From Escherichia phage vB_Eco-B1.1: a stretch of 64,000 nt of DNA. The translations under genes were made by a program, and so were the position numbers. The notes below the pieces were generated by a model. That model was not told the DNA's origin. It did not search any database and saw only the letters and a list, made by a program, of their open reading frames with translations. Location of the stretch: sequence record ON871820; one strand, written 5' to 3'. Positions 580 through 2,416 of the stretch are shown piece by piece (position 1 is the stretch's first letter; each line of letters opens with the position of its first letter).

Positions 580-1068
580 ATGAATATATTTGAAATGTTA
601 CGTATAGATGAAGGTCTTAGACTTAAAATCTATAAAGATACCGAAGGCTATTACACTATTGGCATTGGACATTTGCTTACTAAAAGTCCATCACTTAGTG
701 TTGCCAAATCTGAATTAGATAAAGCTATTGGGCGTAATTGCAATGGTGTAATTACAAAAGATGAGGCTGAAAAACTCTTTAATCAGGATGTTGATGCTGC
801 TGTTCGCGGAATTCTGAGAAATGCTAAATTAAAACCAGTTTATGATTCTCTTGATGCTGTTCGCCGCTGTGCATTGATTAACATGGTCTTCCAAATGGGA
901 GAAACCGGCGTAGCAGGATTTACTAATTCTTTACGCATGCTTCAACAAAAGCGCTGGGATGAAGCAGCAGTAAATCTAGCCCAATCTAAATGGTATCGTC
1001 AGACACCTAATCGCGCGAAACGCGTAATCTCAACATTTAAAACAGGAACTTGGAAAGCGTATATATGA
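580..1068 (+). CDS. e: endolysin, T4-type lysozyme
   Basis: [35 protein letters not shown]... near-identical to T4 lysozyme as recalled, with substitutions mainly at the C-terminus. Confidence 0.97.
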
Positions 1069-1346
1069 AAACATATAGTGAATTTTTATCAGAATCTATT
1101 CTTAACGAAGCTACTGACACATTTGCAACTAAGCTAGGTGCAGCTTTGGTTGAAGCCGAAAGTCTATTAGCACGTATTTCTGAACTTGCTAGTAAGATAG
1201 ATACTCGCAAATTTGAACGTACCAGCGATATTGTTAAGCTTGAAGCCTTGTTGCGTATGTGCGATAAACCAGAAGAAATCGCTAAGAACGGCTCTTTAAT
1301 GAAACAACGTCTTGAAAAATATATTTCAGGCGCTTCAGAAAAATAG
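1065..1346 (+). CDS. internal-protein-like (capsid targeting sequence MKTYSEF)
   Basis: ATG overlaps e stop (ATGA); N-terminus matches the T-even IP targeting motif MKTYxEF. Confidence 0.6.
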
Positions 1347-1348
1347 TT

Positions 1349-1378
1349 GTTTACTTCCTCCAAGGGTTTTGATACTAT
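1349..1378 (+). promoter_or_regulatory. early promoter (GTTTAC ... TACTAT)
   Basis: GTTTAC 1349-1354, -10-like 1373-1378. Confidence 0.55.
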
Positions 1379-1405
1379 ACATTCATCAACTACTTGGAGG
1401 AAATT

Positions 1406-1509
1406 ATGACCCGTCCGAAGCGTCCATTGCGATAAATCAAGCACGCTTAGATGAAAAAATTGATCAACGTCCGACTTGGTACAAATACTTTGGTAAATCA
1501 ATTTACTAA
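1406..1509 (+). pseudogene. denV: denV (pyrimidine-dimer glycosylase, endonuclease V) remnant with internal deletion and frameshift
   Basis: ATG-ACC-CGT (MTR) stops after 9 codons; frame from 1408 encodes [33 protein letters not shown], the recognisable denV C-terminus. Confidence 0.6.
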
Positions 1510-1515
1510 GGAAAA

Positions 1516-1776
1516 ATGAAAATGTATCAAGAATTTATCGTTGAAGCAGATGCCAAAGGTTCTAAATTTAAAGTTAAAGCTTTCATTGGTGATGCGGAAG
1601 ACTTTGGCTCATTAAAACGTAATGGGTATTCTTTCTTAGGTGGCGATGGTAAAGAAATCAACACCTGTGCAAAACGTAGTGAAATTGCTTATGTTGTAGC
1701 AAGTCCTAAAGTAGATGTTGACGATATTGGATATGATTTTAACAACTTCGGAATTATTTCTGGCGGTAAAGCTTAA
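1516..1776 (+). CDS. internal protein (IP-like, MKMYQEFIVEA targeting sequence)
   Basis: 86-aa ORF, SD AAGGAAAA, N-terminal capsid targeting motif. Confidence 0.7.
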   Translation: MKMYQEFIVEADAKGSKFKVKAFIGDAEDFGSLKRNGYSFLGGDGKEINTCAKRSEIAYVVASPKVDVDDIGYDFNNFGIISGGKA

Positions 1777-1779
1777 ACG

Positions 1780-1809
1780 GTTTACGCTTAAGTATTAATA
1801 TGGTATAAT
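1780..1809 (+). promoter_or_regulatory. early promoter
   Basis: GTTTAC 1780-1785, 18-nt spacer, TATAAT 1804-1809. Confidence 0.65.
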
Positions 1810-1837
1810 TACTCTATCAAAACAAACAAGGAAACAC

Positions 1838-2416
1838 ATGAAAACCTATCAAGAATTTATTGCCGAAGCTTCTATAGTAAAGGCCAAAGGCATTAATAAA
1901 GATGAGTGGACCTACCGATCGGGAAACGGCTTTGACCCTAAAACAGCTCCTATTGAACGGTACTTAGCTACAAAGGCTTCCGACTTTAAAGCCTTCGCTT
2001 GGGAAGGACTTCGCTGGCGTAACGATCTAAATATTGAAGTTGACGGACTTAAATTTGCCCATATTGAAGATGTTGTTGCTAGTAACTTAGACGCAGCTTT
2101 TGTTAAAGCCGACAGTGACCTTCGTCGCTGGAATTTAAAACTGTTCTCTAAACAAAAAGGCCCGAAGTTTGTGCCTAAAGCCGGTAAATGGGTTATTGAT
2201 AATAAATTAGCTAAGGCTGTCAACTACGCTGGTCTTGAATTTGCCAAGCATAAATCATCATGGAAAGGTCTTGATGCAATGGCTTTCCGTAAAGAATTTG
2301 CCGATGTTATGGCTAAAGGCGGCTTTAAGGCAGAAATAGATACCTCTAAAGGTACGTTTAAAGACGCTAATGTCCAGTACGCTTACGCCGTTGCTAATGC
2401 AGCCCGTAATTCCTAA
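1838..2416 (+). CDS. internal protein (IPIII-like, MKTYQEFIAEA)
   Basis: 192-aa ORF with canonical targeting sequence; size as recalled for T4 IPIII. Confidence 0.75.
   Translation: MKTYQEFIAEASIVKAKGINKDEWTYRSGNGFDPKTAPIERYLATKASDFKAFAWEGLRWRNDLNIEVDGLKFAHIEDVVASNLDAAFVKADSDLRRWNLKLFSKQKGPKFVPKAGKWVIDNKLAKAVNYAGLEFAKHKSSWKGLDAMAFRKEFADVMAKGGFKAEIDTSKGTFKDANVQYAYAVANAARNS

Follow-up and report, generated by a model that had tools for sequence, protein, structure and literature searches.

The interval between the lysozyme gene e and gene vs.8 was analyzed in the genome of Escherichia phage vB_Eco-B1.1 (sequence record ON871820), of which one strand of 64,000 nucleotides (nt), hereafter called the window, was used. 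The stretch 500-3200 has matches in 919 phage records and is 99.0% identical, end to end, with Escherichia phage vB_EcoM_G8, and the window is assigned to a Tequatrovirus genome. The e-vs.8 interval is one of two variable internal protein (IP) loci (the other one is located at the 57B-tRNA genes), and all three open reading frames (ORFs) considered here, designated ipA, ipB and ipIII, are situated within it, together with a remnant of denV. It is probable that the three small proteins are head-packed and enter the host along with the DNA. The following features were distinguished in the locus and directly upstream of it:

546-566, + strand: pair of T4 late-promoter boxes, TATAAATA (546 and 559), preceding e (pattern search)
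580-1068, + strand: lysozyme gene e, 162 amino acids (aa), Pfam Phage_lysozyme (E 2e-13), the upstream edge of the IP locus
1065-1346, + strand: ipA, 93 aa (ORF list; PHROG 3499)
1349-1402, + strand: T4 early-type promoter with GTTTAC at 1349, within a 10-bp perfect inverted repeat
1406-1509, + strand: denV remnant (alignment; PHROG 1183)
1516-1776, + strand: ipB, 86 aa (ORF list; PHROG 2667)
1780-1809, + strand: early-type promoter upstream of ipIII (TTTACG, 17 nt, TATAAT, with a TG extension; 10/12 matches in the promoter scan)
1838-2416, + strand: ipIII, 192 aa (PHROG 5341)
2471-2572 and 2582-3121, + strand: split vs.8 homologue (PHROG 1488, E 2e-79), the downstream edge of the IP locus

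The three ORFs share a leader recognizable as the capsid targeting sequence (CTS) of T-even internal proteins. Tyr4 and Phe7 are present in all of them, the leaders of ipB and ipIII being MKMYQEFIVEA and MKTYQEFIAEA, respectively. A six-frame translation of the 64-kb window contains four matches to the pattern MK.Y.EF[ILVM].E, and 600 shuffles gave none; three of the four matches are ipA, ipB and ipIII, always at the first codon of the ORF, and the fourth is gene 61.1 at 49081. Moreover, the CTS-coding 32-mers of the three IP genes constitute a three-copy direct repeat. It was shown previously that residues 4 and 7 of the CTS (Tyr, Phe) determine targeting and residues 8 and 10 (Ile/Leu, Glu) processing by the gp21 protease, which cuts after L/I-X-E, that IP propeptides comprise 10-19 residues, and that foreign proteins are packaged in T4 when provided with just the first 10 residues of IPIII (PMC9026906). 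Motifs of the L/I-X-Glu type are present in ipA (L-S-E10 and L-N-E15), ipB (I-V-E10) and ipIII (I-A-E10). As for translation signals, the Shine-Dalgarno sequence AAGGA precedes ipB and ipIII, while that of ipA is weak and this gene is predicted to be translationally coupled to e via an ATGA overlap. Each of the T4 proteins IPI, IPII and IPIII is present in about 360-370 copies per head and is ejected into the host (PMC9026906; PMC3012670), and IPs have been described as diverse defence proteins with only the CTS in common (PMC3012670). Taken together, it is highly probable that the CTS directs packaging of ipA and ipB and that both are processed. In a preliminary description of the window, three ORFs of 93, 86 and 192 aa with CTS starts, an overlap of the first of them with the lysozyme stop and a denV remnant lying between IP genes had been reported; the ORF list, the N-termini and the shuffling test, the ATGA at 1065, and the position of the remnant at 1406-1509, between ipA and ipB, all agree with it.

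The ATG of ipA (1065) shares ATGA with the TGA stop of e, and because the end of e is in this way fused to the start of ipA, the C-terminus of the window lysozyme is unlike that of T4 (ending, in the alignment, with TWKAYI vs. TWDAYKNL). The late-promoter boxes of e sit within a hairpin (543-585, + strand; folding free energy (dG) -15.5 kcal/mol, z -6.1) masking the e ribosome-binding site, in which the e Shine-Dalgarno sequence is paired with the upstream sequence and the loop contains a late box; we take this to be the classical arrangement blocking translation of e from early transcripts. Since late boxes precede e and no terminator-like site was predicted on the + strand between positions 400 and 2700, late read-through into ipA, ipB and ipIII is plausible, and the e late promoters are the likely source of a late transcript spanning e, ipA and the downstream IP genes. 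The inverted repeat between ipA and the denV remnant consists of the arms TTCCTCCAAG (1355-1364) and CTTGGAGGAA (1393-1402), the right one holding the denV Shine-Dalgarno sequence, and the repeat folds, as RNA, with a dG of -20.7 kcal/mol (z -3.3). The T4 ipII-denV intergenic region proved homologous, by alignment, to the promoter/stem-loop region 1349-1402, which represents the promoter-plus-stem-loop cassette typical of IP loci. GTTTAC was also found by the pattern search at 1780. It has been proposed that such promoter-plus-stem-loop elements, derived from T4 early promoters, may mediate IP shuffling (PMC2839356).

Profile comparison with IP families, which had been suggested in the preliminary description, placed each of the three proteins in a different family, i.e., PHROG 3499 (ipA), PHROG 2667 (ipB) and PHROG 5341 (ipIII); Pfam and NCBIfam contained no family for any of them. 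The most obvious case is ipIII, which shows 94% identity to T4 IPIII (Ip3) over 192 aa (E 8e-138; eleven substitutions) and matches PHROG 5341 with E 1e-117 over residues 1-191 of 192. Both proteins have an identical CTS (MKTYQEFIAE, followed by A) and their genes occupy the same e-vs.8 locus; however, ipIII of T4 is the first gene after e, whereas that of the window is the last one, following denV and ipB.

For ipA, a match to PHROG 3499, annotated as 'internal head protein', was obtained across the whole profile (E 1e-46). The same PHROG contains the Ip5 protein of T2, to which ipA shows 48% identity over the full length (E 5e-23), and we regard ipA as a paralogue of this protein. The name Ip5 reportedly goes back to Repoila et al. 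1994, according to citations in later papers. Apart from the end-to-end 48% identity, the Ip5 proteins (T2, RB70, PP01, AR1, Bas37; PHROG 3499) have in common with ipA an invariant [I/L]-x-Glu15, a KLG.AL.EAE.L..RI.ELA helix and an EIAKNGS.MK.RLE motif. On the other hand, Ip5 is encoded at the 57B-tRNA locus, whereas ipA is located directly after e, with the ATGA overlap; ipA has a T4-like Glu10 motif missing from T2 Ip5, its C-terminus is 7 residues longer, and it is near neutral, while Ip5 is basic. A tblastn search revealed ipA at ≥80% identity, adjoining e, in 238 phage records, and, in 258 further records, an Ip5-type copy with about 48-51% identity in the second IP locus. Because the ipA-denV spacer of the window and the T4 spacer between ipII and denV are homologous, ipA may be said to occupy the ipII slot. 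Neither ipA nor ipB was accepted as an IPII homologue, as BLASTP aligned the first 11 residues only and T4 IPII belongs to PHROG 7857. Word-indexed homologue searches with ipA, ipB and T2 Ip5 returned close relatives only.

The two candidate cleavage motifs of ipA differ in conservation. In the alignment of the ipA/Ip5 family, Glu15 within [I/L]-[T/N]-E is invariant, while position 10 is occupied by Lys, Val or Glu. Given this invariance, the 10-19-residue length of IP propeptides and the L/I-X-E rule of gp21, cleavage of ipA is most likely to occur after Glu15, and the mature protein would most likely start with ATDTFATK (at Ala16 rather than Ser11) and comprise 78 aa (8.6 kDa). The removal of the CTS after the targeting-sequence glutamate, as previously expected for all three proteins, thus fits the motifs of ipB and ipIII (Glu10), and for ipA the predicted site should be moved to Glu15. 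In the AlphaFold2 model of ipA (pLDDT 79), a CTS helix (residues 4-10) is followed by a break and by a three-helix bundle (15-44, 53-65, and 69-92); a CTS modelled as a separate short helix ahead of a compact bundle would support the recognition of ipA as an IP. Foldseek searches with this model found nothing significant in the PDB and, in BFVD, one significant match, an Ip5 homologue; since it was the sole one, the fold gives no functional lead. When compared with five relatives, ipA shows 0 nonsynonymous and 5-9 synonymous differences, a constraint as tight as that on the lysozyme gene, and it is therefore under strong purifying selection (nonsynonymous polymorphism, pN = 0).

The relationships of ipB are more distant. 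The protein matches PHROG 2667 with E 2e-19, as does Ip7 of T2 with E 5e-41; hhalign of the ipB and Ip7 profiles aligned residues 1-44 only, with 83% probability, and BLASTP gave no consistent or significant alignment, so ipB seems to be remotely linked to Ip7. Both proteins carry a CTS and have about 90-100 aa, but Ip7 is encoded at a different locus and is basic, while ipB is near neutral. At ≥80% identity, ipB is present in 164 phage records, and at ≥90% in about 150. An exhaustive search of 1.84 billion representatives with a hidden Markov model of ipB yielded 12 matches, including five distant CTS-bearing relatives. The leaders of these distant, full-length relatives (94-194 aa) are MKTYNEFIAE, MQTFHEFLVE, MKSFDQYIME, MKTFQEFINE and MKTYAEFLAE, and as all of them begin in a CTS-like manner, ipB appears to belong to a genuine, small IP family. 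Three long repeat proteins retrieved by the same search were judged to be summed weak repeat matches, not homologues. Two conserved blocks of ipB, GDAEDFGSLKRNGY and KVD..D...DF..FG, are kept down to 64% identity and also in the distant CTS-bearing relatives. Selection on ipB is less stringent than on ipA (ratio of nonsynonymous to synonymous polymorphism, pN/pS, about 0.5 vs. W143), and position 51 is Cys in the window vs. Tyr or His in relatives. Several records, other than the frameshifted ones mentioned below, align to ipB in two or three pieces.

It should be added that ipB starts with ATGAAAATG (1516-1524). The annotation of phage G4498 (1318-1578 of the stretch read) and two database proteins use the second ATG, so that residues 1 and 2 of the CTS are missing; with the first ATG, the protein conforms to the MK.Y consensus.

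The gene lying between ipA and ipB in the window is a deletion derivative of denV. An alignment with T4, Lutter and W143 (denV is intact, 414 nt, in Lutter and W143) showed that the promoter, the Shine-Dalgarno sequence and the ATG are kept, and that 310 nt are missing between AATTATG[A/T]C direct repeats, a position suggesting a microhomology-mediated deletion. What is left is a frameshifted 9-codon ORF and the last 33 codons, start-less and in another frame; codons 3-105 are deleted, so there is no full DenV reading frame with the N-terminal catalytic region, and the PHROG 1183 match of the remnant is limited to profile positions 100-138. The identical junction was found in 15 records, representing 13 phages, which indicates that the deletion is an inherited allele. 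These 13 phages are predicted to lack endonuclease V; the T2 record is also without denV.

The content of the locus was compared with that of other Tequatrovirus genomes. Listed from the end of e, the genes are:

T4: ipIII, ipII, denV (then vs.8)
T2: ip4 only
Bas37 (KarlGJung): denV only
Lutter: ipA, denV, ipB (frameshifted), ipIII
UFV13: as in Lutter, with an additional 104-aa ORF starting MKTYKEFIAE
W143: ipA, denV, ipB, 104-aa ORF, ipIII, ipII
G4498: ipA, deleted denV, ipB, ipIII, ip4

Thus, the e-vs.8 interval holds from zero to five IP genes per relative read, the five of W143 being reached when the 104-aa ORF is counted as a CTS-bearing IP. The order e, ipIII, ipII, denV, given for T4 in the preliminary description, is in agreement with the T4 gene order. 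The statement that the window locus is 'rearranged' turned out to be overstated, as it is a common allele of a hyperplastic locus and not peculiar to this genome, and the single extra IP gene assumed in comparison with T4 should be replaced by two non-T4 genes, of which ipA replaces ipII and ipB is additional. T-even phages are known to possess two IP loci of high variability and over 30 variants of IPs (Arbiol et al., PMC2839356, summing up earlier work). In RefSeq, the three ORFs of G8 are described as 'internal head protein', 'internal head protein' and 'internal virion protein', and the same genes are labelled as internal head/virion proteins also in Lutter, G4498 and UFV13. The window locus is thus a frequent natural allele of the known hyperplastic IP locus; the locus, its variability and the identity of its genes as IPs (annotated in hundreds of public genomes) were already known, and no new kind of element is present here.

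Two observations concern the relatives themselves. The 104-aa ORF, annotated as 'hypothetical protein' and located at 1951-2265 in W143 and 1949-2263 in UFV13 (coordinates of the stretches read), has the leader MKTYKEFIAE, followed by S, and is a putative further, unannotated CTS-bearing internal protein. In Bas37 (stretch 2353-3323), there is no IP gene between e and denV; both IP genes of this phage (Ip5, i.e., bas37_0261, and bas37_0260) are situated at the 57B-tRNA locus.

What these proteins may do after injection can be considered in the light of the better studied IPs. Each of the T4 proteins Ip1, Ip2 and Ip3 inhibits a different GmrSD type IV restriction enzyme, without cross-protection (PMC12373910), and bas37_0260, a CTS protein of phage Bas37, inhibits McrBC (preprint 10.1101/2025.11.20.689424); the earlier assertion that injected IPs are known anti-restriction effectors is well founded in this literature. 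By its orthology to T4 Ip3, the window ipIII is most likely an Ip3-type inhibitor of the two-gene GmrSD of the ECOR17 type, and it most likely also helps head assembly. T4 IPI* (Ip1), IPII (Ip2) and Bas37_0260 resemble ipA and ipB in the leader, size class, packaging-injection logic and presence at the same two variable loci, but they show no similarity to them past the CTS. The substrate of type IV enzymes is probably present as well: given the dCMP hydroxymethylase homologue (42355-43095) and the TAGT-family glycosyltransferase (43724-44566) encoded by the window, the phage DNA probably contains glycosylated hydroxymethylcytosine.

On these grounds, we consider it likely that the e-vs.8 interval is a hypervariable IP locus, occupied here by ipA (Ip5-like), ipB, ipIII and the deleted denV, whose products are head-packed, injected, early-acting inhibitors. 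On the T4 model, the IP genes would be covered by a late transcript starting at the late promoters of e and by early transcripts from the early-type promoters of their own, and the CTS (Tyr4, Phe7) would dock each IP on the gp22 scaffolding core of the prohead. The gp21 prohead protease would then cut after L/I-X-Glu, i.e., after Glu10 in ipB and ipIII and probably Glu15 in ipA, and the mature ipA, ipB and ipIII (about 8.6, 8.0 and 20 kDa) would remain in the head with the DNA, to be co-injected and to act ahead of any phage gene expression. The gene content was probably built by recombination at the promoter/stem-loop cassettes and the CTS-coding repeats. Whether ipA and ipB are anti-restriction effectors, as the analogy would have it, appears to us evenly balanced; by the same analogy, their most likely targets would be further type IV (modification-dependent) nucleases or a different immediate-early defence of the host. 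A more specific proposal, in which ipA is an injected effector against a non-GmrSD defence or a conserved host factor and ipB represents a further inhibitor specificity, is tentative and rather doubtful; as regards ipA, it is suggested by the near-invariance in more than 200 phages, the near-neutral charge, the modelled three-helix bundle and the coupling to the lysozyme gene.

Several results weigh against the inhibitor interpretation or its parts. Ip4-10, including Ip5 and Ip7, the nearest named relatives of ipA and ipB, gave no reproducible inhibition on a GmrSD panel (PMC12373910). For bas37_0261, the Ip5 relative of ipA, no phenotype was reported (10.1101/2025.11.20.689424), and ipA and ipB were rejected as relatives of the McrBC inhibitor bas37_0260, with which the CTS alone aligns. 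The near-invariance of ipA is unusual for an arms-race effector, ipB is frameshifted in Lutter and UFV13, and the isoelectric points of the mature proteins (6.3-8.1 for ipA and 6.4 for ipB) depart from the 9.1-9.7 of the basic classical IPs. Two more [LI]-x-E motifs of ipA (Glu30, Glu40) would be gp21-cleavable if exposed, and no canonical late box was found by the pattern search immediately upstream of ipB or ipIII. The AlphaFold2 model of ipB (pLDDT 48) was unusable, and a PDB sequence search with ipA and ipB gave chance-level matches only. In the literature, no virion proteomics or N-terminal sequencing was found for ipA, ipB or the phages carrying them.

Some of these points could be accommodated by assuming that ipA and/or ipB are packaged structural or DNA-packing parts of the head, acting in core assembly or charge neutralisation and not in anti-defence. 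Head assembly is slowed and burst size reduced in IPIII mutants, and at low salt the IPs are able to bind DNA (PMC9026906); the lack of nonsynonymous differences between ipA and its five relatives is what would be expected of a housekeeping part, and a structural role would also be in line with the finding of no GmrSD target for Ip4-10. Nevertheless, the near-neutral mature ipA and ipB would be poor DNA counter-ions, T4, T2 and Bas37 have normal heads without either gene, and ipB is frameshifted in viable relatives. For these reasons, we find a purely structural role unlikely.

The frameshifts raise another question, namely whether ipB is an accessory gene in decay that now has hardly any function or none, intact here by chance as the lineage loses it. 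The records in which it is split into two or three pieces, its pN/pS, the Cys51 and the neighbouring, dead denV would be in accordance with such a scenario. It is, however, difficult to reconcile with an ORF that is intact in the window and ≥90% identical in about 150 records, with conserved blocks that persist to 64% identity and into distant CTS-bearing relatives, and with a good Shine-Dalgarno sequence and a complete CTS, and decay thus appears less probable still than a structural role. Finally, it is very improbable that the CTS-like leader of ipA or ipB does not lead to packaging at all, with the proteins remaining cytoplasmic or serving as gp21 substrates or decoys degraded to peptides: a parallel may be offered by gene 61.1 (MKTYKEFIKE), which belongs to neither IP locus and is kept in distantly related T4-like phages, and ipA has the extra motifs at Glu30 and Glu40, but these motifs lie within the predicted long helix 15-44 of the ipA model, ipA and ipB are both encoded in a canonical IP locus and are members of IP-annotated families, and the first 10 residues of T4 IPIII suffice for packaging of foreign proteins (PMC9026906).

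Gene 61.1 (49081-49245, + strand; 54 aa) deserves a separate comment. It is located just upstream of the primase gene 61, its leader contains an I-K-E10 motif, and, unlike the ip genes, it occurs in T4-like phages of Klebsiella, Acinetobacter and Aeromonas as well, the total being 1396 phage records. Its residues 2-38 show 43% identity to residues 57-93 of the T4 major capsid protein gp23 (pairwise E 3e-9); this part of gp23 spans L-T-E65, which we take to be its maturation cleavage site, and Glu10 of gene 61.1 aligns with Glu65. Gene 61.1 therefore looks like a small copy of the propeptide-to-mature junction of gp23, as far as can be judged from the alignment.

The remaining genes in the vicinity of the locus are:

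88-543: nudE
3118-3447: vs.7
3455-3817: vs.6 (GrcA-like glycyl-radical protein)

The vs.8 homologue is split into a 33-codon N-terminal ORF (2471-2572) and a 179-aa ORF (2582-3121), the former ending with an in-frame TAG located 9 nt ahead of the ATG of the latter. The start region differs from that of T4 by 2 nt (ATGATTCTATGA in the window vs. ATGATTATGAGG in T4), and the sequence following T4 denV aligns to the split vs.8 region. The start and length of vs.8 vary among relatives, with two fragments in T2. A search of positions 1-6000 gave no Rfam match, so the 165 nt that follow ipIII do not correspond to any known RNA; they represent the 5' portion of the split vs.8.

At 43086-44566 (+ strand), between gene 42 (42355-43095) and uvsX (44644-45825), a 213-aa ORF and a 280-aa TAGT-family glycosyltransferase (PF20691) are encoded. 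The corresponding position in T4 is presumably occupied by a single 351-aa beta-glucosyltransferase, which suggests that the DNA glycosylation type of the window differs from that of T4 and is possibly a T2/T6-like beta-alpha-gt.

Injected IPs are the first phage products meeting host immunity, and inhibition of type IV restriction enzymes has by now been established for all three T4 IPs and for a fourth CTS protein, that of Bas37. Found in about 238 and 164 records, respectively, ipA and ipB belong to the most frequent IP alleles of the sequenced Tequatrovirus genomes. They are reasonable choices for engineering the host range of therapeutic T4-like phages and for the search for new defence-inhibitor pairs. 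If new targets of ipA and ipB do exist, the injected counter-defence repertoire of these phages would extend past GmrSD and McrBC.

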